A stretch of DNA of 62,789 nt, counting the filler, from Basidiobolus ranarum (Eukaryota): the NCBI GenBank assembly GCA_040143965.1. It is 31 parts of 31 records of this genome, joined end to end, with 100 filler letters (N's around TTAATTAATTAA, not from the genome) between each part and the next. Parts side by side here need not be neighbours in the genome. Positions count along the whole stretch, not along the records: positions 8,146 to 10,080 come from JASJQH010010934.1; 30 more parts are not named here. One strand, 5' to 3'. Numbering within the stretch: the first letter of the stretch is position 1; each line of letters begins with the position of its first letter. The position numbers and the translations under genes were made by a program. The notes under the pieces are model-generated. The model ran no database searches and was not told the origin of the DNA. It worked only from the letters and a program-made list of their open reading frames with translations. Shown here piece by piece: positions 4,074 through 56,138 of this stretch.

Positions 4074-4595
4074 AATCGTCGCCACAGACAACGTCGCGGT
4101 CCCCTTGTTGTATATAATGAAGATAATGGTATTGTTCGTGCTTTCGGTAATCTCCCTGGTGTTGAATTGGTGAATGTTCGTCGTCTCAATCGTCTTCTAT
4201 TGGCTCCTGGTGCTCATCTTGGGCGTTTCATCATCTGGACTCAGGGCGCTTTTGAGCTCTTAGATAGCCTCTATGGTACTTATAAGAGATCTTCGACCTT
4301 AAAGAAAAACTACGACCTTCCCACACATATTATCTCTAATCCTGATGTCACCCGTATCATTAACTCCGATGAAATTCAATCAGTGTGTCGTGTTGCTGGC
4401 ACCAAGCATCAAAAGCGCTCTATTGCTCAAAAGAAGAACCCTCTTCGTAACACCGGTGTCATGCTTCGATTGAATCCCTACTCCAAGGTTGTAAAACGTG
4501 CTGAGATCCTCGGTAAGAACAAGAGATCCAAGGATGTTAAGAAGATCCACAATCCTACAAGCAAGAAATTCTTAGAAACTCTTAATACTGAATAA
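4074..4595 (+). CDS. RPL4: 60S ribosomal protein L4 (uL4), C-terminal part, 5'-truncated by contig edge
   Basis: [28 protein letters not shown] and [10 protein letters not shown]...KKNPLRN...LRLNPY motifs typical of eukaryotic uL4. Confidence 0.95.
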
Positions 4596-8045: not shown

Positions 8046-9287
8046 NNNNNNNNNNNNNNNNNNNNNNNNNNNNNNNNNNNNNNNNNNNNTTAATTAATTA
8101 ANNNNNNNNNNNNNNNNNNNNNNNNNNNNNNNNNNNNNNNNNNNNTAATTAAACTACTTTCATGTCCAAATGGTTGTTTGGCTTTCACTGGTGATCTGAA
8201 AAACCTGAAGTCATGTACTGTTTGCACACAATTGGCAATCACTGAATCAGGTAAATATTGTTCTTATTCAGCTTACATACCATTGATTCCCCATCTTAAA
8301 GTTTTTGATGAAATCACCCAAATAAAGATCCTTGATCCAATACCAAAGTACTCACCATCAATCTGATGGTATTCCCAATATACTTGATGGATATCCTTAC
8401 CAGAATCTGAAAAGTCAAGGTTTCTTTGAGAACATGTATGATCATGCATTTGCATTAGCTCTGGATGGTTTCTTGCTAAACAAATATACCATTGGAAAGG
8501 CTTGCTGACTAATAACTTTAATAAACTTAAATCTTCCACCTTCTGAATGGTATAAGAGTCATGATGTTTTGATACTATCCATCATAACTGGACCTAAATC
8601 ACCAGTGCTTATAGATAGCTTCTTGGAGCCTTTGATTAAGAATTTGAATGATTATCAAATGGGGTTCAGGTGGGTGAATATTTTGTTAAAGCTAATATCA
8701 TTGTATGTATTGGTGACACTCCTGACATCAGTAAACTGGAGCTTTTTGCAGGCACAATGCACCATCTTGCTGTAGATTTTGTCAAATCAATGGGGTCTAC
8801 CTAATCAGGCATATGCATTACTACTATTCAATTACAAAACTAAGCTCCATGTTTCTACCATCAAGAGCCCAGTCAGATTTCAACATGATCACTAATATCA
8901 ATTCATGAAATAGTCAGTCCAACATCAAACTTGGTATCAGCCATAGGTCTAAGATTATATTGCTAAAGGGGATCAGCTGGAGCCAGATCTTCCCACTAGG
9001 CACTATGCATTTAATATTCAACAACATTTCAATACTACTTACTCAGCCATATGATGGAAAACTCAATACAAAAGAGCCATTCAAGATAGGATCAAAGTTT
9101 GAATCAATTTGTAAAATGCTTGTAAACATCAAGATACCATCATAATTTACCAGGACTTGCATCAATTTCCACTCTTCTTGGCATTTATTCAAATGCAAAG
9201 ACTGGAAGTATTGGATTTGTATATATTCAAGTGGAATTTTGAAGAGATTTCTGCATGATAAGTAATGGCAACATTGCAAGTTGTTTG

Positions 9288-9570
9288 TGTTGAAAATCTG
9301 GTGACTTGTGGTACAAGCAGTAATTCCCAAAGAGGAAAGTATGGAGTATGGTGACTGCATCTGAACACAAAGTCTAAGGCAAATCAGTAGCTTGTATAGC
9401 TAAAATGCCAAAAGTACCATACATTGACAGACTAGGTTAAGGTTCCCTAGCAATATATGCATAGCATACAAGGACTGGTAGCTCAGTGGTTAGAGCACCT
9501 TGATAGAGTGAAGGAGGTCCCAGGTTCAAATCCTGGCCAGACCAATATTTCTCCCTAAACAATTTCAATA
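9288..9570. mobile_element. 283-bp solo-LTR-like insertion containing a tRNA-like sequence
   Basis: Ends are TGTTGAAA...TTTCAATA (TTTCAACA in the copy ending at 24458). Flanked by 5-bp TSD GTTTG (9283-9287, 9571-9575). Removing it restores the transposase sequence. Confidence 0.85.
9472..9544 (+). tRNA. tRNA-like (pseudo)gene inside the repeat; isotype uncertain (loop ATAGAGT)
   Basis: Acceptor stem GGACTGG/CCAGACC (1 mismatch), D stem GCTC/GAGC, anticodon stem CCTTG/GAAGG (1 mismatch), T stem CCAGG/CCTGG with TTCAAAT loop. A box TAGCTCAGTGG, B box GGTTCAAATCC. Confidence 0.8.
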
Positions 9571-10180
9571 GTTTGTTGATAATGTTAATAAGTTCTTATG
9601 GCATCAACTCACATTGGCAGATCTCAGGCAGATACAGTGACTGTGCAAAGATTTTGTAATTGGATATGAGAAACTTTATTACAAATTTAAAAAAGATAGA
9701 CTGAATCTATGCCGGTATTTAATACATTCCCTGCTGCATCTTTCACAATGTTTAGAGATTATAGGCCTTTCTACACATTCTGGGAGTTCCCAATGGAGTG
9801 CACCTGAGGTGAAATGATGCTCTGTGTGAAATTGTTGGTATGACCATATACTAATCTGATTAATCAGGTATCAGCAAAATCAGTGACAGATGTAATGCAA
9901 TTGGTTAAAGAGACTCCAGAGTATATTAACCTTCCAACAAAGGGCTCTTTTTAATGTGCCCATGGGTTCTCATATTGTTTGAGCACAATAACGGCAACAA
10001 AGCCCAATCCATGGACATAGAGTAAGTACCTCTATAATTTGGACTAATTTGTTTGTGTAATAATCTGATGGTATATCTAGNNNNNNNNNNNNNNNNNNNN
10101 NNNNNNNNNNNNNNNNNNNNNNNNTTAATTAATTAANNNNNNNNNNNNNNNNNNNNNNNNNNNNNNNNNNNNNNNNNNNN

Positions 10181-14249: not shown

Positions 14250-15784
14250 TATTGCTAAAGGGGATCAGCTGGAGCCAGAGCTTCCCATTAGGCACCATGC
14301 ACTTACTATTCAACAACATTCCAATACTACTTACTCAGCTATATAGTGGAAAATTCAATACAAATGAGCCATTCAAGATAGGATCAAAGTTTGAATTGAT
14401 TGGGAAAATGCTTGAAAACATCAAGATACCATCATATTTTATCAGGACTCCCATCAATATCCACTCATCTAGGCATTTATTCAAATGCAAAGACTGGAAG
14501 TATTGGATTTCTATATATTCAAGTGGAATTTTGAAAAGATTTCTGCCTGATGAGCATTGGCAATATTGAGGAGTTGTTTGTTGATATTGTTAATATATTC
14601 TTATGGCATCAACTGACATTGGCAGATCTCAGGCAGATACAGCAATTGTGCAAAGATTTTGTAATTGAGTATGAAAAACTTTATCACAGGTTTAAAGAAG
14701 ATAGATGGAATCTATGCCAGTATTCAATACATTCTCTGCTACATCTTTCACAATGCTTAGCAATTATATGCCCTTGCTATACATTCTGGGAGTTACTAAT
14801 GGACTGCACCTGTGGTGAAATGATGCTCCATGTGATATTGTCAGTATTACCATATGCTAGTCTGATTAATAATGTATCAGCAAAATCAGTGATGGATGTG
14901 ATCCAATGGGTTAAGCAGACTTGAGAGTATATCAACCTGCCAACAAAGGGCCCTTTTCAATGTGCTCACAGGTTTTTGCATTCTTTGAGCACAATAACAG
15001 CAATAAAGCCCAATCCATGGACACAGAGTAAGTACCTCTATAATTGGACTAATTTGCTTGTGTCATAATCTGAAGGTATTTTTAGGATAGCTTCAAGACA
15101 GACTTCATGGTGAGATAAATCAAGATACACAGTATTATTGTTTTAGCCATGGGGTAATCTATTCCTGCAATGACACATCTACTTGTGGCCGGACATTTGT
15201 TGACTGCAAGTTGGGGATGTATGGGCTGAATTCTTTACAGAAATTTGACAAAATCCAAGAGCTTATTCTCATTATGAATGGCAACAAGAGTCAGCTATTT
15301 GCCAAGTGTCAGTGCTATTCAAAATTTCACATGTTTAGCAATTTTTCCACCTGTTAGTTTGAGGGTAAAGCATATTGATGTTGTTGAGTTATATATAATC
15401 AATCAATTATGTGCATATGTAGAGACTAAACACAACAATATCCTTCTATTTTTTGATTCTCATTATGGCTAGAATACAAGGCCTGAATTATCTAAATTAA
15501 GGCATGCATATTAATTCAAATTCCTACTGCCATAAACCCAGTAATTTGCCATTAAAAAATTGTATTTTTGCAAAAATTGCCAGATACTGAATAATGCATA
15601 CCAAATTTGAGGATCACTATTTTAACATATATGAATACCATCCAAATACCATCAACAAACCACTGTCACACCATCAAAATCCCTGGCAGAATGCAAGCCA
15701 CTGATATTGTGATGGTTCTCTGATGGTTTTGCTCATTTGGAGGGTGGATCTAATCTGGATCAAATTGTTTTATTTTTGTTAGGG
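14250..15784 (+). mobile_element. CMC-like transposase 3' half (stop at 15472) and terminus A
   Basis: MHLLFNNI, FKCKDWKYW and HSLLHL motifs. Ends TATTTTTGTTAGGG (rc CCCTAACAAAAATA). Confidence 0.85.
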
Positions 15785-15953
15785 TTTGATTATTTTTGTA
15801 CATCCTTGTAGTGTGACACAACTGAGGGTGCTTTGTGGTGTTTGTGTGGCTTTTTGCTTTCCTTTAACTCTGGGGCCAATTTCAACACTTTGAAAAGTAC
15901 CAGTTGAGGTTGAAGAGCCAAGAGTTTTATTTGCTGGTGTTTTGGCTTGTTGA
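15785..15953 (-). pseudogene. CMC-like ORF2 internal fragment (target of the preceding insertion)
   Basis: TCCTTGTAGTGTGACAC.ACTGAGGGTGCTT is the reverse complement of positions 1-31. Confidence 0.6.
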
Positions 15954-16183
15954 TGTTAAAGTATTTGGGAGCCCATTGGAATTGGTTTGGAGAATTAGAG
16001 GAATTGGTGGTTTTCACTTATTGATTTATTGAGTAGAAAGTTGACATTTATAGTTTTGTCAAGATGTAAACAAACTAACATGTATAGTATGTTAAGGAAA
16101 GTCCCAGGAACATGTGTGCAAAGTTTGGGGCTTCTAGCACAAGTTTGAAAAATTGATATATCTGAGAACTTCTAAGTTGGTAA
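15954..16183 (-). repeat. Copia LTR family A, partial
   Basis: Matches 38905-39135. Confidence 0.85.
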
Positions 16184-16283: not shown

Positions 16284-18217
16284 CTGATGAGACTTACTGA
16301 AAAGGAAGCGGCTTTGATTATTGAGGAGTGGAGAGTTAAATCCAGACTTAGCAACCAGGTGTTGATTGGTTTTCTGACACTTTTACACCAGTTGATTGGC
16401 AATTGTTGCTTGCCACAGACCTGGTACAAGTGGAAAACACTTGTAAATTGTATGACTTATAATTCTTCAGCAATTAAACTACCTGTATGTCCAAATGGTT
16501 GTTTGGCTTTCACCAGTGATCTGGAAAACCTGAAGTCATGTACTGTTTGCACAAAATTGGCAATCACTAAATCAAGTAAATACTGTTCATATTTGGCTTG
16601 CATATAATTGATTCCCCATCTTAAAATTTTGATAAAATCACCCAAATATAGATGATTGATTCAATACCAAAATACTTACCATAAAGCTGATGGTATTTCC
16701 AATATACTCAATGGATATCACTACCAGAATCTGACTAGTGGAAAACACTTGTAAATTGTATGGCTTATAATCCTTCAGTAATTAAACTGCCTTCATGTCC
16801 AAATGATTGTTGAGCTCTCACCAGTGATCTGGAAAACCTGAAGTCATGTACTGTTTGCACACATTTGGCAATCACTAAATCAGGTAAATATTCTTCATAT
16901 TTGGCTTGCATATAATTGATTCCCCATCTCAAAGTTTTGATAAAATCACCCAAATATAGATGATTGATCCAATACCAAAATACTCACCATAAAGCTGATG
17001 GTATTACCAATATACTTGATGAATATCACTACCAGAATCTGAAAAGTCAAAGTTTCTTTGAGAACACATATGATCATGCATTTGCATTGGCTCTGGACGG
17101 TTTCTCACTAAAGAAATATATAGTTGGAGCAGCTTGCAGGCCAATGATTTTAATCAACTAAATATTCCTCCTTCTGAACAGTATAAGAGCCATAAAATTT
17201 TGATACTATCCATCTTATCTAGACCTAAATCACTGGTGCTTATAGATAGTTTCTTGGAGCCTTTGATTGCGGAATTTGAACATTTATCAGATAGGGTTCA
17301 GAAGGGTGAATATTTTATTAAAGATAGTATCATTGTATGTATTGGTGACACACCTGCCATCAGTAAACATGGAGGTTTTTGTGGGCACAAGGCACTATTG
17401 TGCTGTAGATTTTGTCAAATCAATGAAGTTTACTCTATCAGGCATATGCATTACTACTATCCAAATACAACACTAAACTCCATGATTTTACTGTCAAGAG
17501 CCTGGTCAGATTTCAACATGATCACTGATATCAATTCACCAGATAGTCAGTCTGACATAACACTTGGTACTAGCTGTAAGCCTAAGATTATATTGCTAAT
17601 GGGGATCAGCCAGAGCCAGAGCTTCCCATTAGGCACCATGGACTTACTATTTAATAACATTCCAAACTACTTAATCAGCTATATAGTGAAAAATTCAATA
17701 TGAATGAGCCATTCAAGATAGGATCAAAGTTTAAGTCAATTAGAAAAATGCTTGAAACCATCAAGACATCATCATACTTCACCAGGACTCCCATTAATAT
17801 CCACTCATCTAGGCATTTCTTCAAATGCAAAGACCGGAAGTATTGATTTGTGTATATTCAAGTGGAATTTTGAAAAGATTTATGGCTGATTAGTATTGGC
17901 AACATTGGGAGTTGTTTGTCAATATTGTTGATATAATCTTATGGCATCAACTCACATTGGCATATCTTGGGCAGATACAGGGACTGTGCGAAGATTTTGT
18001 AATTGGATATGAACAACTTTATCATGGGTTTAAAGAAGATGGACCAAATCTATGCCGGTATTCAATACTATTGCTGCCGGATCTTTCACAATGCTTGGAG
18101 ATTATAGACCTTTGCTATACATACTGGGAGCTCTCAATGGAGCACACCTGTGGTGAAATGATGCTCCATGAGGAATTGTCAGTATTACCATATGCTAATC
18201 TGATCAACAATGCATCA
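16284..18217 (+). pseudogene. CMC-like transposase pseudogene with an internal ~308-bp tandem duplication
   Basis: Same Tnp2-like motifs. 16431-16734 is repeated at 16739-17042. Confidence 0.85.
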
Positions 18218-18317: not shown

Positions 18318-18677
18318 TACCCTCAGCTTTAGGGTGAGTACTTAGATATTGGATAAATGATCTATATTTGGGTAAATTCATCAAAACTTTAAGATGGGGA
18401 ATCAATGGTACATACGCCAAATATGAACAATATTTACCTGATTCAGTGATTGCCAATTGTGTGCAAACAGTACAAGACTTCAGGTGTTTCAGGTCACTGG
18501 TGAAAGCTAAACAACCATTTGGACATGGAGGTAATTTAATTACTGAAGGATTATAAGTATTACATTTGCCAAGTGCTTCCACTTGTATCAGATCTGTGGC
18601 AAGCAACATTTGCCAATCAACTGTGGTAAAGGTGAAAGTAAATGACTAAATGCCTGGTTGCTAAGATTAGATTGAAC
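18318..18677 (-). pseudogene. CMC-like transposase 5' fragment
   Basis: CPNGCLAFTSDLK..CTVC motif. Confidence 0.8.
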
Positions 18678-20250
18678 CCCTAACAAAAATAGAATTAATT
18701 TGAATGGGATTGGATCCACCCTTGTGAAGCACAAAGCCATCAGAGAACCATCACAATGTTGGTGGCTAGCGTTCTACCAGGGATTTTGATGGTGTGATGG
18801 CAGTTTCTTGATGGTATTTTGTGGTATTCATACATGTTAAAATAATGATTCTCATATTTGCATGTTTTATTTATTTCAGGCAATTTTGGCAAAAATATAA
18901 ATTTCAAATGGCAAAGTATTGGGTTTACTGCTGTGGGAATTTGAATTCATATGCATGCCTTTATTTAGATATTTTTGGCTTTGTATTCCAGCCATAATGA
19001 GAATCAAAAAATACAAGAATCTCATTATGTTTAATCTCTACATATGCAAATACTTAACTGATCAGACATTACGCAACAACGGTAACATGCTTTACCAGAA
19101 AACTAATGTTGGAAAAATTGCTAAACATCCAATATTTTGAATAGCACTGACACTTGGTAAATAACTGACTCTTGTTACAGTTCACAATTGGAATACACTT
19201 TTGAATTTTGGCAAATTTCGGTAAAGAAATCAGCCATTATATCCTCAATTAGCAGTCAACAAATGTCCTGCCACAAGTAGATGTGTCATTGCTTGAATAG
19301 ATTAGCCCAAGGCTAAAACAATAATACTGCATATCTCCATATATCTCACCTAGAAGTCTGTCTTGCAGCTTTCCTAGAAATACCATCAGAATATTACACA
19401 AACAAATTAGTCAAAATTATAGAGGTACTCACTCTGTGTCCATGGATTGGGCTTTGTTGCTATTGTTGTGCTCAGACAATGCAAAAACCCATGAGCCCAT
19501 TGAAAAGAGACCTTTGTTGAAAGGTTAATATACTCTGGAGTCTCGTTAACCCATCACATTATATCTTTCACAGATTTTCAAAAAATACAAGAATCTTGTT
19601 ATGTTTAGTCTCTACAAATGCACATATTTGACTGATTAGACATAACTCAATAACATCAATATGCTTTACCACCAAACTAATGGTGGAAAAATTGCTCAAC
19701 ATCTGAAATTTTGAATAGCACTGACACTTGGCAAATAGCTGACTCTTGTTACCATTCACAATGAGAATAAGCTCTTGGATTTTGGCAAATTTCCGTAAAG
19801 AATTTAGCCAATATATCCCCAACTTCAGTCAACAAATGTCCTGCCACAAGTATATGTGTCATTGGTTGAATAGATTACCCCATGACTAAAATAATAATAC
19901 TGTGTATCTCCATCTATCTCACCAAGAAGTCCATCTTGCATCTTTCCTAAGAATACAGTCAGATTATCACACAAGCAAATTAGTCCAATTTTCAAGGTAC
20001 TTACTCTGTGTCCATGGATTGGGCTTTGTTGCTGTAATTGTGCTCAAACAATGCAAAAACACGTGAGCACATTGAAAAGAGTGCTTTGTTGGCAGGTTAA
20101 TATACTCTGGAGTCTCCTTAACCCATTGGATTACATCCATCACTGATCTTGCTGATACATTGTTAATCAGATTAGCATACGGTAATACTGACAATTTCAC
20201 ACAGAGCATCATTTCACTGCAGGTGCACTCCATTGGGAACTCCCAGAATG
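18678..20250 (-). mobile_element. CMC-like terminus A and two joined transposase 3' segments (junction near 19580)
   Basis: Begins CCCTAACAAAAATAG. 19005-19566 and 19582-20140 are homologous. Confidence 0.85.
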
Positions 20251-20350: not shown

Positions 20351-20831
20351 GTGCAGATATCTGGGAAGAACTTAATACAGAGTGGCACAATATTGCAGGG
20401 TATCCACCAGATAGCTGGAAGAATGTTGATTCAGCAACGTTAATACAATGGTGGGCTTTGAAGGAGATATTGACACAAACTTGTGTTGGGTATGAGCTAA
20501 ACCTTGGGTATGAAGAACTCTATAAAACTATTCAGGAGAATATATCAAAGATACTAGGGATTTCAAAGGTGACAAATTAACATTCAAGTGGTAATTGTGT
20601 AAATTTGAGTTATGTTTTTTGCACATGTGTTGATCCATAGTTCACTGAGATTTTAGCCAATCATGTGCAACTATTTTGCGAAATCTTGAAATTTCACTCC
20701 TGAAACTGAAAAAATTGATTAAAATCAAATCTAACTTGACAATTTTATGACAGTTAGTAAATGGTCAATCCCAAATGGATTAAAATTGTGACAGTTTTCC
20801 TATGATAACAATCCTCAAATTTCTGTTAGGG
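20351..20831 (+). mobile_element. CMC-like ORF2 3' end and terminus B
   Basis: Matches 159-639. Ends TTTCTGTTAGGG. Confidence 0.85.
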
Positions 20832-22282
20832 GCATGTTAATGCCTTCCAAAGTGGATAGTGGATTGCTAGACTGCTCATCAATTAAGTCCTCCATTCTTG
20901 CTGGTTTTTTTCCTTTTGTGCCCACAGGCTTCGGCTTGGAAGCAAATTTTGACTTAGATTTTGAATGCTTTTTGAATGGCATTGAAATTTTCAGATGGTA
21001 AACTTGGTGTAATAAGATTGCTTACAAACAACTAATAATAAACCAAAATTGCCATCCATTACCAGAAATATCTTGTAAATTGCCTGATCACTCATCTGTG
21101 ACACCATCTCAGAATCAGCGGATGGTATTGATAGGCTATACCTAAAATACCACCCTTATGTGGGAATTGTTCTTTCTTCTACAATATCCTTCTCATGCTG
21201 CAACACAAATGTTTAAAGAAGCCCTGGTATTATTGTCACAAATTCTTGTGCTCTGAAAGCCAGAGGCTTCATAGAGAAAATAATGACAAGCATGGTCACT
21301 ATACAATACCACCAGCTTCATAAAGCCTGGTGAATAACAACAGTAATAAGTGTACTTAATCAACTTTAGTTTTGCCCATTGAGTCCACTGACTGCAGTTT
21401 GCCTCCAAGTTTTGGTAACAAAGCCAAAAGTCAAGATACCATTAAGTTACCACAGTTATATGACCAGTATGATGTAGGTCATAATGCCACTTTGGTTGAA
21501 CCAATAAGTCTGGAAAACTTTGAGGACTAGCTGCTAGATGTTGACCTTGGTTATTCCAGTACCAATGGTAGAATATCAGAAGTTGAAGAAGAAGAGGACA
21601 GTTTTGTTATGGACTCTTTGTTAAAGGCAACTATTAGTCCACTCATAACACTTACAGTAACGGAAGCAGCTTTGATCATTGAGGAGTAGAGAGTTCAATC
21701 CAATCTTAGCAACCAGGTGTTTATTGGCTTTCTTACAATTTTACAACAGTTCATTGGCAACTGTTGCTTGCCACTGACCTAGTAAAAGTGCAAAACACTT
21801 GTCAATTGTATGACTTTTAATCTTTCAGTAATTAAGCTACCTTCATGTCAAAAACAGCTGTTTGGCTTTAACCAGTGATCTGAAAAAACTGAAGTCATGT
21901 ACTGTTTGCACACAATTAGCTCACACTGAATCAGGTAAATATTGCTTATACTTGGCTCACATACCATTGATTCCCAATCTTAAAGTTTTGATGAAATCAC
22001 CCAAATATAGATCATTGATCCAATACCAAAGTACTTACTGGAAAGCTGATGGTATTACTGATGTACTTGATGGATATCACTACCAGAATCTGAAAAGTCA
22101 AGGTTTCTTTGAGCACACATATGATCATGCATTTGCATTGGCTCTGGATGATTTCTCACTAAACAAATATTCCGTTGGAAAGGCTTGCTGGCCAATAATT
22201 TCAATCAACTTAAATCTTCCTCCTTCTGAATGGTATAAGAGTCATAATATTTTGATACTATCCATCATATCTGGACCTAAAT
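20832..22282 (+). mobile_element. CMC-like element centre: ORF2 start (ATG 20982, -), 212-bp spacer, transposase 5' part (ATG 21195, +)
   Basis: Same divergent layout as 6110-8045 and 49543-50655. Confidence 0.8.
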
Positions 22283-24314: not shown

Positions 24315-24414
24315 NNNNNNNNNNNNNNNNNNNNNNNNNNNNNNNNNNNNNNNNNNNNTTAATTAATTAANNNNNNNNNNNNNNNNNNNNNNNNNNNNNN
24401 NNNNNNNNNNNNNN

Positions 24415-24458
24415 CAAATCTTGGCCAGACCAATATTTGTCCCTAAAAAATTTCAACA
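24415..24458. mobile_element. tRNA-containing LTR-like repeat, terminal fragment
   Basis: CAAATCTTGGCCAGACCAATATTTGTCCCTAAAAAATTTCAACA matches 9527-9570. Confidence 0.8.
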
Positions 24459-26169
24459 CTTACAATACAGCAAAGCCTAGTCCAAGCAAGTATTATACAG
24501 GTCTAGTGGATAAGCTTAATACTTGGGATACTAGCTTAAATGTAGCTGTCTGTGTTGGAAAGCTTGAGAAAGCTGGATATATGGCCACAGACTTGATAAG
24601 ATGAGCTGTTAAGATTTGCTGACTGCAGTTACAACATTAGGGATCAAAATTTATGTGGGGATTTGTACTAAAAGTGACACAATGTCCTTTGACTATAAAA
24701 GTAGTGCCAAGATAGTAGTGGAAGTGATACCTATCCTAGTGTGAATCTAGGCAATAAAGGTAACTGAATGGGTCATCAAAGCCCAACTGGTGGTGGAAGT
24801 GGTGACAAATATGTAGCTCCTGCCAAAGTAGTTATGAAAGCCCAAACAAATATTGCGATTCTAATACCACTCCTGTTGGTGATAACAAAGGCAGCAAGGA
24901 TAAGTACCCAAGGTCTATTGCTAAATAAGAAAACTAAGTTTGAGCTTGGAGATCATCACAGTGAAAAGCAATCCAGAATACTTTTCCAATGCTAGCCTTG
25001 AATTTCTTGCTTGGTTGCATTCTTCATCAGCAAGGATACAAAGATATCAAACTAAACCTTGGTCTGCAAATGTTAAAGTAATGATTGTTATTGAAATATA
25101 ATTGTAAGCCATGATTAAAGAGGAGCTTATAACTACTGCTACAGCTTATACAGCCCAAGATTTCTTGGTTTTCAGTCATTATATGTTTGCTGATCTGACT
25201 TAAGTATTAGTTCACTACACTTAGTAAAGTTGATTGGGATGTGCAAGTGTATAGACTAACCTATAATTCCCAAATACTTTTCCAAGTAGTGTGTTACAAT
25301 AGTCTTTTTATCTGCATATATGAATAAATAGTTTTTTATCCACATATATGAATCAAATTTGGAGCATGAGCAAATATACAGGGTCAGTTGGAGTCATCTC
25401 CCTCTGAAGATCAACAATCTTCCCCTTCACTTTTAAATATTGCTCAGCTGTAGCCTGATCAAGAATTGTTAGATCTAGCAAAGGGGGAGTCATCAAGTAA
25501 CAGCAATGCAATATCCAACTCAAATCAATTTGACCAAGCTCAAGTCACAGATCAAACCTTGTATCAAACTCAATCAAAGATAGCCTATATTCAACCAACA
25601 CTTTGTCAATATAGTGGATGGTACAAGAAATACTGAAAATACCACCATCACTATTGCATGATCAGATATCAGTGGCAACAGATACTAGCCTATAGCACTT
25701 ACAACCTCTAGTCCAATTGACTAAATTCACACCAGAAACTTGACCAAGCTTAATAACTAAGTTCTGAAATTTCAGACATTATGATTATTTTGGACAGAAA
25801 TTCAATATTCTGATATATAAATTAAAATAGACTTACAGGTCTAGAATACAGAGGTTTAACCAATAATCAAGTGCTTTGGGATCTACTAGCCAATGGGAAA
25901 GAACAACAATACAGCAGCAGTATTGACCAGAATCTCATTGCCAAGAAACTCTACTGAATGAATAAAGTACAGGGATATTAGTGACCAATTCCAAGATTAG
26001 AACATAGCCTCTATTGCTGAATAAGGAATTAGATTTAGGATTGTGATCCCAGTTGGCAGTGGTTGACCAAAGAGTGATTTAGACCAAATCCTTAACATGA
26101 TAGCCTTGACTGCCATATTGATATAATATGTGAAGAGACTTCATTCATTTAAGCCAACTATGTAATATG

Positions 26170-26344
26170 TGTTGAAAGTCTGGTGACTTGTGGTACAAGC
26201 AGTAATTCCCAAACAGGAAAATATGGAGTATGGTGACTACATCTGAACACCAAGTCTAAGGCCAATCAGTTGCTTGTATAGCTGAAATGCCAAAGTACCA
26301 TACATTGACAGACTAGGTTAAGGTTCCCTAGCAATATAGGCATA
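26170..26344. mobile_element. tRNA-containing LTR-like repeat, first 175 bp
   Basis: Starts TGTTGAAAG and is highly similar to 9288-9463. Confidence 0.85.
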
Positions 26345-26445
26345 NNNNNNNNNNNNNNNNNNNNNNNNNNNNNNNNNNNNNNNNNNNNTTAATTAATTAA
26401 NNNNNNNNNNNNNNNNNNNNNNNNNNNNNNNNNNNNNNNNNNNNC

Positions 26446-26895
26446 AGAAAAGGGTTGGCGTGGAACTCAGATATGATACGACATAGGCGAACCCACACAG
26501 GAGAAAGGCCATATAAATGCGATATGTGTGGCAAAGGGTTTATACAGCGGTCAGCTCTTCGAGTTCACATTCGCACGCATACTGGAGAAAAACCGCACCA
26601 TTGCCAATATCTTGGGTGTGGCAAAATGTTTAGTGACAGTTCATCATTTGCCCGACACCGTCGGACCCACACTGGTGAACGACCATATGTGTGCATGATC
26701 CCCCATTGCGACAAGAGTTACACTAGACGCGTGGCCTTACTTAAGCACGAAAAGAAACATAACTCTGACAAGTCCTTTGGTACGAAGCATATCTCTAAGG
26801 TCGATACTCAGTTGTATTCACCAACATATCTTGAGGATCTAGGGTTACAAAGTAGATATTACCGAATGGAAACAAAGAATCTCCAAATTCTTTAG
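26446..26895 (+). CDS. C2H2 zinc-finger transcription factor, 5'-truncated (one partial and three full fingers)
   Basis: Repeated HTGERPY/HTGEKP linkers and CxxC/CxxxxC...HxxxH fingers. Confidence 0.9.
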   Translation, partial: RKGLAWNSDMIRHRRTHTGERPYKCDMCGKGFIQRSALRVHIRTHTGEKPHHCQYLGCGKMFSDSSSFARHRRTHTGERPYVCMIPHCDKSYTRRVALLKHEKKHNSDKSFGTKHISKVDTQLYSPTYLEDLGLQSRYYRMETKNLQIL

Positions 26896-28275
26896 TACCC
26901 TCAATCCAGCTGCTGGGAGTATTTGTAATATAGATCCATGATTTCTGAGATGATTATTCAAATTGAGGATTCACTAATATTCTCTGCCTGTAAATAAAAT
27001 ACTTGCTACTCAAACATATACCGACCATTTGATCTCGTCAACAGAAACGACAGATTACTCCTGAACGGGTCAAAAGAATATTGTTTACGAGTGCTAGCAA
27101 ATATGATCTACTTCAAAGTAGTGGCTGTACCACTGGCATATGCTTATTCCACCTATGATAGATAATTTTATGTCTGCTAAGATATTGTACGGGGAAATAG
27201 TTGACCCACAAATTGTCAGTAACATTCCCTATGCAAGGATGCCAACCAGAAGCGAGCACTATTTTGCACCAAATCGAACGTTGAGATCAAAAAGTAGACG
27301 ACCAACATATGCCTCTTGGTTTGAATGGTGCATGCACGTAAAATAAAGCAAGGCATTACGTGCTTACTCTAGAAAAGTGCACTTACCCCCCCGATAACAT
27401 CTTAGTAGGCATAAAATCGTCGATCTAGTATTGATGCCTCTATGATGGTCGAACCTTCGTTACTGTCTCATCGGCAAAGTGTACACTTTAGTATTTATCA
27501 TCTTAGACTTATCGACGGGTATCTGGAAGAGCATCGATCATAAACTGAGTAAATCAATGTTTGTCGAAACCCCTTAGCCGCGAATCTAAAAATAGTATGG
27601 CCTGAAAACAAGGTTATGAACAAATAAATCACACGATCTCACACTAGGGGCTGTTGTATCGGCATCGATTCTCCCAGATCTGGTTACGTAATCGAGTAAA
27701 GTTGACCAATATTTGCGGATTGGATCGGCGTTTGAAAGAGATTGCAAATTTCATTTCCTTATCATTTCCAGAGGTTGCTGAGACTGCGTGACATTGTGGT
27801 GTTTTTGATGTTATTAGATCTGGAACCTACAGACCTTCGATTGGTTAGGAATATTATATTTCTAACCACTTGACTCAGTTTGAAGAACATTGCGAAGTAC
27901 CAACGCGTTATCACCTCAGCCATTAACTAAATTTTGAGTACTTTTACCTAAATGGTGGCCATGTGAAGTGCTCATGTGGGAGTTGCAAAATGGGGACTCT
28001 GGTACTTGCTTACTGACATTCTTTTCTGAGTTGGGAGGCTACACCATAATTTGTTTGTAAACGTACAGGAAACATGTCTCACCTTCATACTATACTTGAT
28101 GAATATGGCCATATCGTATGCAGAAACGCAATCCCTTAATAAGATGCCAAATAAAGGTAATTGTGTCTTTGGAGTAGATATCCAGAGTCTCCTACCTAAC
28201 TACTAATATGTAGGAGTGGCAGAAATCATGCACTATTATCATAAGCACCCATTCTACGCAATAGCAATTGATATA

Positions 28276-28374
28276 TGTTAAAGTATTTGGGAGCCTGTTG
28301 GAAGTGGTTTGGAGAATTAGAGGAATTGGTGGTTTTCACTTATTGATTTATTGAGTAGAAAGTTGACATTTATA
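28276..28374 (-). repeat. Copia LTR family A, terminal fragment
   Basis: TGTTAAAGTATTTGGGAGCC... matches 38905. Confidence 0.85.
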
Positions 28375-30502: not shown

Positions 30503-32196
30503 TTTACTCTAACAGACATATGCATTACTACTATCCAAATACAACACTAAACTTCATGATTTTACCACCAAGAGCCAAGTCAGATTTCAATATGATCACT
30601 GATATCAATTCACCAAATAGTCAGTGTAACATCAAGCTTGGTATTAGCTGTAAGCCTAAAATTATATTACTAAAGGGGATCAGCTAAAGCCAGAGCTTCC
30701 CATTAGGCATGATGCACTTAGTATTCAACAACATTCCAATACTGCTTACTTAGCCATGTAGTGGAAAATTCAATATGAATGAGCCATTCAAGATGGGATC
30801 CAAGTTTGAATCAATTGTGAAAATGCTTGAAAATGTCAAGATACAATCATATTTTACCAGGACTCCCATCAATATCCACTCATCTAGGTGTTTATTCAAA
30901 TGCAAAGACTAGAAGTATTGGATATGTGTATATTCAAGTTGAATTTGGAATAGATTTCTGCCTGATAAGTATTTGCAACTTTGGGAGTTGTTTGTGCATA
31001 TTGATAATATATTCTTATGCCATCTACTCACATTGGCAGATCTCAGGTAGATATAGCAATTGTGCAAAAATTTTGTAATTGAATATGAAAAACATTATTA
31101 TAGGTTTAACGACAATAGACTGAATCTATGCTGGTATTAAATACATTCCCTGCTGCATCTTTGACAATGCTTAGAGATTATAGGCCCTTGCTATACATTC
31201 TGGGAGTTCCCAATGGAGTGCACCTGCAGTGAAATGATGCTCTGTGTGAAATTGTCAGTATTACCATATGCTAATCTGATTGACAATGTATCAGCAAAAT
31301 CAGTTATGGATGTAACACAATGGGTTAAAAAGACTCCAGCATATATTAACCTGCCAACAGAGAGCTCTTGTCAATGTGTTCATGGGTTTTTGCATTGTTA
31401 AAGCACAACAACAGGAACTAAGCACAATCCATGGACACAGAGTAAGTACCTGTCTAATCTGACTAACTTGCTTGTGTGATAATCTGATGGTATTTTTAGA
31501 AAAGCTGCATGACAGACTTCTTGGTGAGATAGACCAAATTATGCATTATCATAATTTTAGCCTTGGTGATCTATTCAAGCTATGACACATCTACTTGTGG
31601 CAGGACATTTGTTGACTTCAAGTTGGGGATATATTGGCTGAATTTCCATGGAAATATGCCAAAATCCAGGAGCTTATTCTCATTGTCAACAGTTACAAAG
31701 GTCAGCTATTTGCCAAGTGTCAGTGCTGTTCAAAATTTCAAATGTTTAGCAATTTTTCCACTGTTTGTTTACTGGTACAGCATATTGATGTTGTTGAGTT
31801 ATGGCTACTCAGTCAAGTATTTGCATATGTAGAGACTAAACACAACAAGATTCTTGCATTTTTTTGATTTTCATTATGGCTGGTATACAAAGCCTAAAAT
31901 ATCTGAATAAAGGCATGCATACTAAATCAAATTCCTACAGCAGTAAACCTAGTAATTTGACATTTGAGGATTGTATTTCTTCAAAAATTGTTGGATATTA
32001 AATAATGCATGCCAAATTTGAGGATCAACAATTGAACATGTATGAATATTGTCAAAATACCATCCAGAAGCCACCATCACACCATAAAAATCCCTAGCTG
32101 AATGTCAGCCACCAATATTGTGATGGTTCTCTGATGGTGTTGCTATTTTGGAGGGTGCATCTGATCTGGATCAAATTAATTTTATTTTTGTGAGGG
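30503..32196 (+). mobile_element. CMC-like transposase 3' half and terminus A
   Basis: Homologous to 14250-15784. Ends TTTATTTTTGTGAGGG. Confidence 0.85.
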
Positions 32197-32429
32197 ATAT
32201 ATATATAACATACGTTCCAAATTGCAGTTAAGTGATATTTGACTAAGTCATGTTAACTAATGCATATGTGATATACAAGATAGTTAGGTGTATAAAGATT
32301 GAGATAACAAATATGATAAAGACTATAAACTTCAATACTCCCACTTAACTAAATATTTGTATATCTTGATCCTAACTTAAATCTTAATTCTTCAAATTTT
32401 GGCTTGGGTAATGGGTTGGTAAGGATGTC
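32197..32429 (-). mobile_element. Copia 3' end: RNase H tail, PPT (32338-32346) and partial LTR family D
   Basis: DILTNPLPKPKFEELR, then GTGGGAG abutting TATTGAAG. The LTR part matches 35140-35278. Confidence 0.8.
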
Positions 32430-38904: not shown

Positions 38905-40533
38905 TGTTAAAGTATTTGGAAGCCAATTGGAAATGGTTTGGAGAATTAGAGGAATTGGTGGTTTTCACTAATTGATTTATTGAGTAGAAAGTTGACATTC
39001 ATAGTTTTGTCAAGATGTAAACAAACTAACATGTAGAATATATGAAGGAAGGTCCCAGGAACATGTGTGCAAATTCTGGGGCTTCTAGCACAAGTTTGAA
39101 AAATCTGTTTATCTGGGAACTTTTAAGTTGGTAAAAATATTTTAAGTAAATTCCAATTGAGAATAATTGATAATATCTTAGTGAATTATAAGATAACCAA
39201 GTACTAAGCTATATATTACTATATAGGTGTTTAGGCAATGCTAATTTCAACACTCTCCCTCAACTAAGTAGTCATAGAAACTAATCACAACAAAGGTCTA
39301 AATTTCACAAATTTCTGTCTAGCTAATGGTTGGGTTAGTATATCAGCAATCATGTCCTCTATAGAACAATAAGTTAAGTTAATCAACTTATTTTCTATAG
39401 TATCTTTAATGAAGTGATGCTTAATATCTATGTGTTTGCTTCTATCATGAAATGTGGTATTTTTAGCTAATTTTGTACAACTTTGATTATCTTGAAATAT
39501 TGTAGTTGGTGAATTTTGAGAATATCCCAAATCTGTTAAGAGTTGTCTTAACAATATTGCTCCTTTTGTTGCCCCATAGGCAGCCATGTATTCAGGTTCT
39601 GTTGTTGAAAGTGCTACAATAGGTTGTTTCTTTGAATTCCAAGAAATAGCTCCATTACAGCAAAGAATTAAGTATCCTGTTGTAGATCTTGTGTCTTCAA
39701 TATCTCTTCCTCAATTTGCATCTGAATATCCCATCAGATCAAAATTTGATCCTGAATATGTGTATTTGAAGCATAGATTCATAGTACCTTTCAAATATCT
39801 GAAAATCCGCTTAACTTGTATGATTTGACCATAATTTTGAGGATATTGGCACGTAACTCCCACAGAATATGCAATAACTGGACATGCTCCAACCATAATA
39901 AACATCACACTACCAACTAAGGATTGATAATGGAGTTCCTGGCTTTCATTTGAATAGAAAAATGTCTGATTTGAGCCATTTTTGATCAAGTTAAGATTCA
40001 TTTCCATTGGGGTAGATACTGGTTTACACTCTTCCATTCTGAACTTCATTTGTATATTTAGGATATACTTAGACTGGTTTAAAGTTAATGTTTTGGTAGT
40101 TTAATCTATCTTAATTTGTATTCAATGATAGTATGTCAGTTTACCAAGATCAGTCATTTTGAATTTGGCAGATAAGCTAGATTTGATTTTCTCCAAAGTC
40201 TTCAAGTCATTAGTTGCTATAATAAGGTCATCTACATACAAGGCTAATAAAACTTGGTTTGTAGTATCTCTCCTGGAGTAGATACTATAGTCAGCATTAC
40301 TCTTTGGAATTTGAGTGTTTCTAAAAAAACATCTATGTTTCTATTCCAAGCTCTTGGAGGTTGTTTTAAGCCATAGAGTGTTTTCTGGAGTCTGCAAATT
40401 TTTAGGGTTTTCTGGGTCCACAAATCCATCTGGCCGGCCCATATAGATCTCCTCAGCAAGCTCACCATTCAAAAAGGCACTTTTAACATCCATTTGATGT
40501 ATAATAAAGTGATATTTAGCTGAAATTGCTAAA
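38905..40533 (-). mobile_element. Copia 3' end: RT, RNase H, PPT GAGGGAGAG (39261-39253) and 348-bp LTR family A (39252-38905)
   Basis: LYGLKQ, GYSDA, RSKHIDIKHHFI and ADILTQPL motifs. The PPT abuts TGTTGAAA. Confidence 0.9.
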
Positions 40534-43509: not shown

Positions 43510-43857
43510 TGTTGAAATTAGCTTTGCCTAAACACCTATATAGTCATATATAGATTAGTACTAAGTTATCTTATAATTCACTAAGATATTATCCATTATT
43601 CACAATTGGAATTTACTTGGAATAATTTTACCAACTTAGAAGTTCTCAGATATATAGATTTTTCAAACTTGTGCTAGAAGCCACAAACTTTGCACACATG
43701 TTACTGGGACCTTCCTTAGCACATTCTACATGTTTGTTTGTGTACATCTTGACAAAACTATAAATGTCAACTTTCTACTCAATAAACAAATAAGTGAAAA
43801 CCACCAATTCCTCTAATTATCCAAACCACTTCCAACAGGCTCCCAAATACTTTAACA
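43510..43857 (+). repeat. Solo Copia LTR family A with 5-bp TSD TTATT
   Basis: TGTTGAAA...TTTAACA, with TTATT at 43505-43509 and 43858-43862. Confidence 0.9.
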
Positions 43858-46959: not shown

Positions 46960-47309
46960 TGTTGAAATTAGCATTGCCTAAGCACCTATATAATTATATA
47001 AAGCTAAGTATTTACTTATCTTATATTTCGCCAAGATATCACCCATTATTCTCAATTGGAATTTACTTGGAATATTGACACCAACTTAGAAGTTCTCAGA
47101 TATATGGATTTTTCAAACTTGTGCTAGAGGCTCCAGACTTTGCACACATATTCCTGGAACCTTCTCTTAACCCATTCTACACGTTAGCTTATTTACTTCT
47201 TGACAAAACTATAAATGGCAACTGAATACTCAATAAATCAATAAGTGAAAACCACCATATTCTCTAATTCTCCAAACCAGTTCCAACAGGCTTCCAGAAT
47301 ATGTTAACA
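46960..47309 (+). repeat. Copia LTR family A, probably solo (flanks TGGGA/TGGAG, imperfect TSD)
   Basis: Full-length match to 43510-43857. Confidence 0.85.
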
Positions 47310-47945
47310 TGGAGGACCCAGTCCTCCCAGTACAATAAGAAAGCAGGGGGATTGGGAGATGCAATGTTACCATATACTATCTTCACACATTATATTTGCA
47401 AGTTACTAGCAAATGGGAAGAGCTGGGCTAGCTCAAGTTTTCCAAAGGTTGGAGATCTTTCACTTTTGTAATCAAAATCTTGTATAAAGCAGGGCCCCAA
47501 TAACAAATAAATATCAATTTTACTTTGTGATTATAAATAAACATTTTACAACTTTAATGTAAAATTTGGCATACATTAGACAATAAACTTCTTACAAATA
47601 CATACTTAATAATACTAATTGATGAGTACTTGCACCATAGGTTATACCAATTCTCTTTGTTAAATACTTAAACACTAATATATATAGCTTTGTATAGGTT
47701 TGCCACAAGTCTTTCAGTGACACAAATGGCAAAACTAAATTTTTGGCTACATGAGCTGCCCACCACAAAGGTGGTACAGGTTTAAAAAGCAGCATGCCCA
47801 GTGTCAAATAATTAACTGAAATATGCACAACAGAGCCCTGTAAAGTTAATTAAACCACCTTGCATTGGGTCTGCATGCACTGGCAAATTTCAGCATATTC
47901 TTTACCTTGAATTTTACAGGGACTAAGGTCAACCAATATAGTTTT

Positions 47946-48631
47946 TGCTGAAATTAGCATTGCCTAAACACCTATATAATCATATATAGCTTAGTACTTA
48001 GTTATCTTATATCTCACTGATATATTATCCTTTATTCTCAATTGGAATTTACTTAGAATATTGACACCAACTTAGAAGTTCTCATATATAGATTTTTCAA
48101 ACTTGTGCCAGAAGCCCCAAACATTGCACACATGTTCATGGGAACTTCCTTAATGCATTCTACTCATTAGCTTGTTTACATCCTGACAAAACTATAAATG
48201 TCAACTTTTTACTCAATAATTGAAAACCACCAATTCCTCTAGTTCTCCAAACCACTTCCAACAGGCTCCCAAATAGTTTAACAGCTTATGAGCCCTGACC
48301 ATGCACTCTCTGCAATGTCTGCTTTGCAAATTTATGGAACTTTTCCCTCCTCTGAAAAATTGGATGGAACCAATTATCAAGTTTGATAAAATATAATGAA
48401 AATGCTGCTGTAAGAAAAAGGACTTTGGGACACTGTTGTAGGAGAAAAAAACAATGCAAGACTATCTGAAACAAAGTTTTACTCCAGGTTAAAAAAGAAC
48501 AAAGTGCCTTTAACACAATATGACTTAATGTTAAAGACAAATTGCTAATTCAATGTTTAAGAGCTAAAACTGCCAAGAAGGTATGGAAAGCCTTAGAAGA
48601 CACCTACCAAATAAGTTCTGCTGGCAACAAG
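47946..48631 (+). mobile_element. Copia 5' end: LTR A (47946-48283), PBS GCTTATGAGCCCTG, degenerate gag
   Basis: PBS abuts the LTR. EKLDGTNYQV and KVWKALEDTY gag motifs follow. Confidence 0.85.
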
Positions 48632-48731: not shown

Positions 48732-49542
48732 TTTATTACAGGTTTAAAGAAGATAGACTGAATCTATACCGGTATTCAATATGTTCCCTGCTGCATCTTT
48801 CACAATGCTTAGAGATTATAGGCCCTTGCTGTATGTTCTTGGAGCTCCCAATGGAGTGCACCTGCAGTGAAATGATGCTCTGTGTGAAATTGTCAGTATT
48901 ACCATATGCTAATCTGATTAACAATGTATCAGCAAAATCAGTGATGGATGAAATGCAATGGGTTAAGGAGACTCCAGAGTGTATTAATCTGCAAACAAAG
49001 GGCTCTTTTCAATATGCACACAGGTTTTTGCATTGTTTGAGCACAATAACAGCAACAGAGCCCAATCCATGGACACAGAGTGAGTATCTCTATAATTGGA
49101 GTAATTTGCTTGTGTGCTAATCAGATGGCATTTTTAGGAAAGCTGTAAGACTGACTTCTTGGTGAGATAGATCAAGATATGCAGTATTATTGCTTTAGCC
49201 ATGGGGTAATCTATTCAAGCAATGACACATCAACTTGTGGCAGGACATTTGTTGACTGCAAGTTGGCAATGTATTGGCTGAATTCTTTATGGATATTTGC
49301 CAAAATCCAAGTGCTTATTCTCACTGTGAATGGTAACAAGAGTTATCTATTTGCCAAGTGTCAGTGCTATTCAAAATTTCAGATGTTAAGCAATTTTTCC
49401 ACCGTTAGTTTACTGGTTTAGCATATTGATGTTCTTAAGTTATGTCTAATCTTTCAAGTGGCCCATATGTAGAGACTAAACACAACCAGATTCTTGTATT
49501 TTTTAATCCTTATTATGGCGGGAATCAAAGCCTAAAATATCT
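48732..49542 (+). pseudogene. CMC-like transposase 3' fragment
   Basis: Homologous to 14680-15492. Confidence 0.85.
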
Positions 49543-50655
49543 CAGTAAAGGCTTGCATATTGATTCATTTTGGAAGTTGATGGTCTTGATGGTGCTTTGG
49601 ATGAACTTTGCTTAACTATTGCTTTACTACGTAATTGGGGGATTACAATCTCTTCACTTCCACTATTGGTGGAATGGAACACATCTGGTAAATTGATCAA
49701 TCCTTCATCATTACTTGAGTTAGTTTCTGGTATGTTAATGCCTTCTAAAGTGGATAGTGGATCAATAGAGTGCACATGAATTAAGTCCTCTGTTCTTGCT
49801 GGTTTTTTTCCCTTTGTGCCAGCAGGCTTTGGATTAGAAGCGGATTTTGACTTAGATTTTGAACGCTTTTTGAATGGCATTGAAATTTTGCAATGGTAAA
49901 CTTGGTGTAATGAAATTGTTTAGAAACAGCTTATACTAAACCAAAATTGCCATCCATTACCAAAAATATCTTTTAAATTCCCTGATGACTTATGTGGGAG
50001 ATGTTCTTTTTTGTATAATGGCCTTCTAATGCCACAACACAAACATTTAAAGAAGCCCTGCTATTATTGTCTCAAATTCTTGTGCTATGAAAGCCACAGG
50101 CTTCATAAAAAAAATAACCACAAGCTTGGTCAATGTACAAAGCCATCAGCTGCACAAAGCCTGGTGTATAACAACAGTAATAAGTGCACTAAATTAACTT
50201 TAGTTTTGCCTATTGAGTTCACTGACTGTAGTTTGCCTCAAAGCTTTGGTAACACACCAAAAGTCAAGATACCATTGAATTACCACAGTTATATGACAAG
50301 AATGATGTAGGTCAAAATGCAACTTTAGTCAAACCAGTCAGTCCAGACAACTTTGAGGACTTGCTGCTAGATGTTGACCTTGGTTATTCCAGTACCAATG
50401 GTAGTATATCAGAAGTTGAAGAAGAAGACAATGGTTTTGTTATGGACTCTTTGTTATTGGCAAACATTAGTCCACTCATAACACTTACAGTAAAGGAAGC
50501 AGCTTTGATTATTGAGGAGTGGAGAGTTCAATCCAATCTTAGCAACCAGGTGTTTATTGGTTTTCTTACACTTTTACCACAGTTGATTGGCAACTGTTGC
50601 TTGCCACAGACCTGGTACAAGTGGAAAACACTTGTCAATCATATGACTTATAATC
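49543..50655 (+). mobile_element. CMC-like element centre: ORF2 start (49880, -) and transposase start (50029, +)
   Basis: Open 112-aa MPFKKRSK... frame. Spacer shortened by a deletion. Confidence 0.8.
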
Positions 50656-54801: not shown

Positions 54802-56138
54802 CTTAAAGTTTTGATGAAATCCCCAAATATATATCAATGATCCAATACCAAAGCACTCACTGTAAAGCTGATGGTATTAACAATATACTTGATGGATAAC
54901 ACTACCGGATTGTGAAAAGTCAAGGTTTCTTTGAGAACACATATGATCATGCATTTGCATTGGCTCTGGATAGTTTCTCACTAAACAAATATACCATTGG
55001 AAAGGCTTGCTGGCCAACAATTTTAATTAGCTTAAATGTTCCTCTTTCTGAACAGCATAAGAGTCATAATAATTTGATACTATCCATCATAACTGGACCT
55101 AAAGCACCAGTGCTTACAGATAACTTCTTGGAGCCTTTGATTGTAGAATTTGAATGGTTATCCAATGGGGTTCAGATTGGTAAATATTTTATTAAAGCTA
55201 ATATCATGGTATATATTGGTGACACTCCTGCCATCAGTAAACTTGGAGGTTTTTGCAGGCACAATGCACTATCTTGCAGTAGATTTTGTCAAATCTATGG
55301 AGTCTACTCTATGAGGCATACACACTACTACTATCCAAATACAAACCTAAGCTCCATGTTTGTACCATCAAGGGCCTGGTCAGATTTCAACATGTTCACT
55401 GATATCAATTCATCAATTAGTTGGTCCAACATCAAACTTGGTATTAGCAATAAGCCTAAGATTATATTGCTAAGGGGATCAGCTGCAGCCAGAGTTTCCC
55501 ATTAGGCACTATGCACTTACTATTCCATAACATTTCAATACTACTTACTCAGCTATATAGTGGAAAACTTAATATGAAAGAGCCATTCACAATAGGATCA
55601 AAGTTTGAATTGATTGGGAAAATGCTTGAAGACATCAAGATACCATCAATAACCACTCATATTGGTGCTTACTCAAATGCAAAGACTGGAAGTATTGGAT
55701 TTGTATATGTTCAAGTGGAATTTTGAAAAGATTTCTGCCTGATAAGTGTTGACAACATTGGGAGTTGTTTGTCAATATTGTTAATGTATTCTTATCACAT
55801 CAACTCACATTTGCAGATCTCAGGCAGATACAGTGCCTGTGCCAAGATTTTGTAATGGGATATGAAAAACTTTATTACAGGCTTAAAGTAGATAGAGCAA
55901 ATCTATGCCAGTATTCAATATATTCCCTGCTGCATCTTTCTGAATGCTTGGAGATTATAGGCCCATGTTATGCATTCTGGGATTTCCCAATGGAGTGCAC
56001 CTGCAGTGAAATGATGCTCCATGTGAAATTGTCAGCATTACCAAATGCTAATCTGATTAACAATGTATCAGAAAAAACAGTGATGAATGTAATGTGATTG
56101 GTTAAAGAGACTCCAGAGTATATTAACCTTCCAACAAA
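54802..56138 (+). pseudogene. CMC-like transposase central fragment
   Basis: GDTPAISKLGGF.HNA..SRFCQI and WDFPME motifs. Confidence 0.85.

Follow-up and report, generated by a model that had tools for sequence, protein, structure and literature searches.

The locus at 9288–9570 (+) raises the question of how a 283-bp piece of mobile DNA comes to carry a whole tRNA-like gene between ends that resemble those of a long terminal repeat (LTR), and of the kind of element to which such a piece belongs. The window in which it lies, i.e., the whole 62.8-kb stretch of DNA analysed, consists of 31 pieces of 1921–1937 bp, arranged in descending order of length and parted by spacers built as N44 + TTAATTAATTAA + N44 (e.g., 1938–2037, 24315–24414, and 26345–26444). 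Since these are 31 separate contigs joined by spacers, adjacency across a spacer is meaningless. The pieces look like contigs of a fragmented assembly, and many of them are copies of a few repeat families. On a contig other than that of the element, from which the repeats of the remaining contigs are absent, so that it is tied to the element through membership in one assembly, we located the C-terminal half of the ribosomal protein uL4 (RPL4) at 4074–4595 (+); this fragment is 85% identical to its counterpart in Basidiobolus meristosporus, its next matches are from Mucoromycota and Glomeromycota (66–67%), no rust fungi appear among the 120 matches listed, and its best match among solved structures is a fungal uL4. 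No other marker for the host organism was found in the window. A different contig begins with a C2H2 zinc-finger open frame with HTGE(K/R)P linkers (26446–26892, +; cut by the contig start), whose protein search was dominated by animal poly-zinc-finger proteins, and this contig terminates in a piece of the LTR family described further below as LTR B.

The contig that holds the 283-bp element (8146–10080, +) is one degraded member of a Transposase_21 (CACTA/EnSpm-type) transposon family. That the host is a transposase pseudogene had been suspected in an earlier, sequence-only reading of this DNA, and this is borne out by the Transposase_21 (tnp2) scores, which amount to 26.6 bits for the ORF at 8509–8775 of the host contig, just under the cut-off of 28.6, and to 41.0 bits for the paralogous ORF at 54900–55505. 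For a paralogous ORF, the database gave one relative only, a metagenome protein of 698 aa (P0121) with 78% identity, which carries PF02992 and PF06869. As a family, these decayed Transposase_21 transposons are very abundant and make up about one third of the contigs, with pieces at 8146–10080, 14250–16183, 16284–18217, 18318–20250, 20351–22282, 30503–32429, 48732–50655, 54802–56724, and 60869–62789, and with a mutual identity of roughly 78–91% among the copies.

This abundance of paralogs allowed the borders of the element to be placed by comparison with sites that lack it. Five paralogs of the host repeat span the insertion site without an insert (near 14576–14581, 30990–30996, 17914–17919, 61651–61656, and 55767–55772); each of the five holds GTTGTTTGT once, and in each, the matches to the left and right flanks overlap by 6–7 bases. 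In the host contig itself, GTTTG stands on both sides of the element, at 9283–9287 and 9571–9575. Because all five paralogs are uninterrupted and carry the site a single time, the insertion and its 5-bp duplication are real, and the borders are fixed to the base. From the letters alone, one could formally also read a 6-bp duplication (GTTTGT), with the start of the element moved by a single base. The element begins with TGTTGAAA (9288–9295) and ends with TTTCAATA (9563–9570), so that its termini are of the TG...CA type and match as inverted repeats in seven of eight positions, while a second copy, which reads TTTCAACA at 24451–24458, gives an inverted match in all eight. The sequence-only reading had described precisely such 8-bp inverted ends and a perfect 5-bp target site duplication (TSD), and on both counts it can be upheld. 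Between these ends, the element contains neither TATAAA nor AATAAA, and it has no A-rich or simple-repeat tail.

Near the 3' side of the element lies its most conspicuous part, a 73-nt class I tRNA-like cloverleaf at 9472–9544 (+), which occupies bases 185–257 of the 283 and is thus preceded by 184 bp and followed by the last 26 bp. ARAGORN called this module as Ser(aga), the sole tRNA in the whole window, and the Rfam covariance model for tRNA (RF00005) scored it at 55.1 bits (E 5.5e-11) against a gathering score of 29. Both internal promoter boxes are intact. The A box, TAGCTCAGTGG at 9479–9489 (+), fits the pattern TRGCY...YGG (here TAGCT...TGG) described for Helenus elements (Kojima, 2024; PMC10886601), and the B box, GGTTCAAATCC at 9523–9533 (+), matches GGTTCRANYCC, as no other stretch of the window does, with GGTTC at 9523–9527. 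A cloverleaf of this size, with consensus A and B boxes and ending 26 bp from one end of the element, was what had been proposed beforehand, and both tRNA predictions agree with it. The cloverleaf is also the minimum-energy fold of the module (−23.2 kcal/mol), and its stability is not unusual (z = −1.04; a fold as stable or more so was given by 31 of 200 shuffles). The LTRs, the contig ends, and the rest of the window yielded no further tRNA-like or 5S-like piece, even with E values up to 10 admitted.

The body and the anticodon of this module do not belong together. Its variable loop measures 5 nt, and the serine anticodon AGA does not fit a class I body with so short a loop; the sequence-only reading had likewise warned that the anticodon is unreliable. 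There are, moreover, two mismatches in the stems, A3:A70 and G31:G39. As to the end of a possible transcript, a run of at least four T is absent after the module within the element at both of the available 3' ends, so that a Pol III transcript started there would lack a canonical stop. The missing T4 terminator, like the missing poly-A or simple-repeat tail, had been remarked on before and is a property of the element as sequenced. We also considered whether the strand of the tRNA avoids T runs in a way that could be read as a Pol III signature, and rejected this, as finding no TTTT anywhere in the element carries no significance when set against either windows (also lacking in 327 of 2567 windows of 283 nt) or shuffles (lacking in 2120 of 5000).

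With both boxes and a full cloverleaf, the module offers what one would look for in an ordinary LINE-mobilised SINE of tRNA origin, or in a functional tRNA gene lodged in repeated DNA, and with the SINE2 type the element does share a tRNA-derived part with both boxes in a short, non-coding, and interspersed unit. However, SINEs carry their tRNA part at the 5' end, have a tail that is LINE-related, A-rich, or made of simple repeats, and are flanked by duplications of variable length. Here, in contrast, 184 bp of unrelated sequence stand before the tRNA-like part inside the duplication, the tRNA-like part sits at the 3' side, the ends are TG...CA, the duplication is 5 bp long, and the final 26 bp close in an inverted terminus where a tail would be expected. 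Having no tail, and with its tRNA part at the 3' side, the element is not built like a SINE. A working tRNA gene fares no better, given a Ser anticodon (AGA) on a body that lacks the long variable arm, the mismatches at 3:70 and 31:39, and no TTTT downstream in the element. Both the ordinary SINE and the working tRNA gene are contradicted by the anatomy of the element, and we give this explanation hardly any credence.

Two additional copies of the element, both partial, had been pointed out at 24415–24458 and 26170–26344, and their places are correct. The former (+) comprises the last 44 bp, from the T loop to the terminus, and is identical to 9527–9570 in 40 of 44 positions, whereas the latter (+) comprises the first 175 bp and is identical to 9288–9463 in 166 of 176 alignment columns. 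Their partial nature calls for a different reading, though, since one and the same contig opens with the 44 bases of the former and closes with the 175 bases of the latter, so that both fragments are cut by its start and its end instead of being truncated in the genome. Together they attest to a minimum of one further locus, and probably to two. In the fragment at 24415–24458, the T arm adjoins the terminus just as it does in 9288–9570, while the fragment at 26170–26344 stops 8 bp short of where the tRNA would lie. That both contig ends stand on the tRNA part or close beside it would fit, on a supposition about the assembler, with this part being the most repeated stretch of the genome. The only complete copy in the data is the one at 9288–9570. 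Exact scans, run with one 21-mer taken out of the 5' part and one 24-mer that bridges the tRNA end and the terminal segment, gave no match in metagenome contigs and none in prokaryote genome contigs, and a scan of viral contigs with the 24-mer only likewise gave none.

Paired LTRs of the 283-bp family with a primer-binding site (PBS), a polypurine tract (PPT), and a short internal part were not found in the window. The contig at 24415–26344 offered the only pair in the same orientation, enclosing 1711 bp, and as an LTR-internal-LTR arrangement we rejected it on several features. Just 8 of the 15 bases before 26170 are purines, which is no PPT, compared with 11 and 12 of 15 before two copies of LTR B. 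Moreover, a TGG-type PBS is missing from the 1711 bp between 24458 and 26170, whose open frames (stop to stop) do not exceed 77 aa and which show no similarity to other contigs of the window apart from the element itself. Directly after the terminus of the second copy, at 24459–24471, the contig reads CTTACAATACAGC, of which CTTACAA could pair with a ...UUGUAAG tRNA anticodon arm. Candidates for such a pairing would be Tyr-GUA or Thr-UGU, and the place is the same as that of the anticodon-loop PBS in the Copia family described next. We also looked at self-priming by the LTR's own tRNA-like part, and rejected it as well, the best complementarity after the LTR being 5 nt, a value reached by 924 of 1000 shuffles.

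The same set of contigs contains a Ty1/copia LTR family, LTR B, of about 348 bp (TGTTGAAATTAGC...CTTTAACA), which begins with TGTTGAAA, the very 8-nt start of the 283-bp element, and ends with ...TTTAACA. Copies are located at 43510–43857, 38905–39252 (−), 46960–47309, and 47946–48283, with partial ones at 15953–16183 and 28275–28374. The copy at 43510–43857 (348 bp) is a solo LTR with TTATT on both sides, i.e., with a 5-bp duplication, and this agrees with the earlier remark that Copia LTRs of the window begin with TGTTGAA and that one of them has a TSD of this length. The copy at 38905–39252 (−) is preceded by the purine tract GAGGGAGAG and by an ORF (39285–39710), and is a 3' LTR. This ORF has 42% identity (E 3e-38) to residues 1096–1236 of a copia-type polyprotein, a region just after the RVT_2 domain (801–1011) of that protein, which also has Retrotran_gag_2. 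In the copy at 47946–48283, the LTR is followed by G and then by CTTATGAGCCCTG, which is complementary to a CAU anticodon loop (initiator-Met type), and to judge from these letters this points to a 3'-truncated tRNA as the primer. The stretch 46960–48283 holds two LTR B copies in the same orientation, 636 bp apart. Because the left one (46960–47309) comes after a purine tract and is a 3' LTR, and the right one comes before the PBS and is a 5' LTR, these represent two neighbouring Copia elements and not a miniature one. In a protein search with the Copia integrase, no relative of more than 51% identity was present among the 150 matches listed, and the best 10 of these 150 (31–43% identity) were from plants, an arachnid, an alga, and metagenomes.

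This genome thus harbours a Ty1/copia family that agrees with the 283-bp element in the start of its LTR and in the length of its duplication. In the window as a whole, TGTTGAAA occurs 17 times, versus 7.0 ± 2.4 in shuffles, and the excess is partly due to these repeats. The likeness between the two kinds of unit consists of the first 8 nt, an ...AACA end, and the 5-bp duplication, and it goes along with clear differences, as LTR B is 348 bp long, has TATAAA and AATAAA, has no tRNA-like part, and does not align with the 283-bp element in its interior (the MAFFT alignment is a forced one). An extended homology between their 3' ends was examined and discarded, because beyond the last bases 89 to 1401 of 2000 shuffles were as good. 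With the 3'-end likeness not above that of shuffles, the element may lie in either orientation with respect to the Copia sense strand.

Short inverted ends, a duplication of fixed length, and a small size could also describe a MITE-like, non-autonomous DNA transposon, moved by a transposase or by a DDE integrase-like enzyme and holding a tRNA piece by chance, and that the internal features of an LTR element were not seen would suit such an origin. Even so, the inverted ends extend over merely 8 nt, are of the TG...CA type, and are shared with a Copia LTR that has a 5-bp duplication as well, and no transposase family with these ends occurs in the window, where the only one identified, Transposase_21, is the host. 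In addition, 5-bp duplications are rare among the superfamilies of DNA transposons, and the one seen here accordingly counts against a MITE. We therefore hold this origin to be highly improbable, and return to that of an LTR.

On the LTR side, the sequence-only reading had suggested a family of LTRs that captured a tRNA gene, with a Pol III promoter or a chromatin barrier as its possible role. What speaks for it are the TG...CA ends, the 5-bp duplication, the lack of a SINE-like tail, and the 8-nt start in common with the Copia LTR, and the tRNA-like module itself is real. The part that did not materialize is a paired copy with a PBS, a PPT, and internal sequence, and for this reason the name LTR is one that we infer for the element. 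The underlying idea of a tRNA counterpart to Cassandra, moreover, is not new. LTRs with tRNA-derived sequence have been published as Helenus, a group of miniature terminal-repeat retrotransposons (TRIMs), which together with Cassandra and Ajax was named TRIMp3 (Kojima, 2024; PMC10886601). According to this account, Helenus elements have a total length of 311–1263 bp, with two direct LTRs, a short internal part, a PBS, and a PPT. Their LTRs keep the box A motif TRGCY...YGG and the box B motif GGTTC, and the two longest LTRs given measure 321 and 323 bp. In fungi, 113 Helenus families are described from Pucciniales, in addition to those from Agaricus, Coprinopsis, and Amylostereum, and these have 5-bp duplications and Copia partners, along with many solo LTRs, some families surviving only as solo LTRs and fragments. 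The PBS of fungal Copia and Helenus elements is said there to be mostly complementary to tRNA anticodon loops, the dominant primer type, to which the CTTATGAGCCCTG behind LTR B at 47946–48283 also belongs, and no complementarity was found there between the tRNA-like part of a Helenus LTR and the PBS. Disagreement over the tRNA isotype is frequent, as whole families are predicted as tRNA-Ser-AGA or Thr-AGT, with Ser-AGA in rust families (PMC10886601).

The 283-bp element resembles this description in a number of ways. It has a tRNA-like sequence with both boxes in an LTR-like unit (55.1 bits in Rfam, the ARAGORN call, TAGCT...TGG, and GGTTC), a 5-bp duplication (GTTTG on both flanks, single in all five paralogs), and a solo form. 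Its anticodon does not fit the tRNA body and reads AGA, as in the rust families. The same genome has a Copia family whose ends match and in which the PBS is of the anticodon-loop (CAU) kind, the tRNA-like part of the LTR has no complementarity to the sequence after 24458, and the length of 283 bp lies below the maxima of 321 and 323 bp in that paper. On the other hand, the defining LTR-PBS-internal-PPT structure is not seen here, where we have a solo copy and two fragments at contig ends, and the host appears to be a Basidiobolus-like early-diverging fungus, whereas the fungi in Table 1 of PMC10886601 are all Basidiomycota (Pucciniales, Agaricus, and Coprinopsis), to which the text adds Amylostereum. 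By comparison of described features, the 283-bp element is probably a member of the Helenus-type elements. Table 1 of that paper includes no early-diverging fungi, and Mucoromycota and Zoopagomycota are absent from its text; nor does the literature that we consulted on Helenus and TRIMp3, tRNA-like LTRs, Cassandra, and Basidiobolus transposable elements (including PMC13570524) report such elements in Basidiobolus or its relatives. Consequently, it is the host lineage, an early-diverging fungus outside the Basidiomycota, that may be new.

With Cassandra, the likeness is of a more general kind and consists of a gene for a small RNA, complete with its internal Pol III promoter, in the LTR of a non-coding element. 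The module of Cassandra, however, is 5S rRNA and comes with terminators, while the one here is tRNA-like and has no T-run terminator; in fact, no 5S match was obtained in the window at E up to 10. In Cassandra, conserved Pol III terminators define an 18-bp repeat at the RNA's two ends (as summarised in PMC10886601).

Whether the module does anything in its LTR is a separate matter. The element could be a solo LTR left by an autonomous Copia, or by a large non-autonomous element, instead of by a TRIM, with the tRNA-like piece an inert passenger, a tRNA-derived SINE or a retro-copied tRNA inserted into the LTR of a master copy and multiplied together with it. Pieces that resemble tRNA are stated to occur in 'not a few' Repbase LTRs, of which only the short ones with TRIM structure were named Helenus, and the insertion of a SINE into an LTR is the origin proposed for Helenus itself (PMC10886601). 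That no short paired element is seen, that a Pol III terminator is missing, and that G31:G39 damages the anticodon arm are all in keeping with a passenger. Against it, both the A and the B box have stayed intact in a module of 55 bits, yet at a copy divergence of about 6% this would be expected without selection too. Further points against it are the lack of TATAAA and AATAAA, in which the element is unlike LTR B and fits poorly with a Pol II-driven autonomous element, its length of 283 bp, shorter than the 348 bp of LTR B, and the mere 26 bp after the tRNA, with no SINE body or tail. On balance, an inert passenger is an unlikely explanation, if the most serious of those that we weighed against the preferred one.

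The explanation that we prefer, and consider likely from the anatomy of the element and from these comparisons, is that the 283-bp element is the solo LTR of a Copia-mobilised, Helenus-type LTR retrotransposon with a tRNA-derived Pol III promoter module in its LTR. A Copia-type integrase would have integrated the retrotransposon into a dead CACTA-type transposon, leaving the 5-bp duplication, and recombination between its two LTRs would then have left the solo LTR, as the anatomy suggests. The LTR family would carry its tRNA-derived module near the 3' end, with A and B boxes intact in a body that fits no decoding tRNA, and by analogy with Cassandra, where such a role is shown, and with Helenus, where it is proposed, the module would most likely be an internal promoter for Pol III, with the template RNA driven from the 5' LTR. 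Pol III transcription of Helenus was itself put forward as a proposal and left unvalidated by its author (Kojima, 2024; PMC10886601). The family would be a non-autonomous one of Helenus type (TRIMp3), presumably short in the manner of TRIMs, with its proteins supplied by the Copia family.

For a simple model in which Pol III starts and stops by its own signals, the absent T-run terminator is a real difficulty. As no T run follows the module at either of the available 3' ends, we propose, as speculation, that the ends of the RNA could be set by tRNA-processing enzymes. In its fullest form, the proposal would be that a Basidiobolus-like early-diverging fungus harbours a Copia-mobilised, Pol III-driven LTR element of independent origin, whose template RNA receives its ends by RNase P and RNase Z cutting at the tRNA-like structure of each LTR, unlike the Pol III termination of Cassandra. 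Taken as a whole, this combination strikes us as a long shot.

Some of what follows from this locus concerns annotation. Predictors of tRNA will count such LTRs as tRNA genes, the sole tRNA call in the 62.8-kb window being this very element, and in fragmented assemblies, contig ends that fall within repeats mimic truncated copies. In terms of biology, the element touches on the question of how a Pol III-driven LTR element forms the ends of its RNA without a terminator. Moreover, if the assignment of the host holds, tRNA-bearing LTR elements would also be present in an early-diverging fungal lineage, and this would add weight to the view that LTRs have captured the promoters of small RNAs repeatedly.
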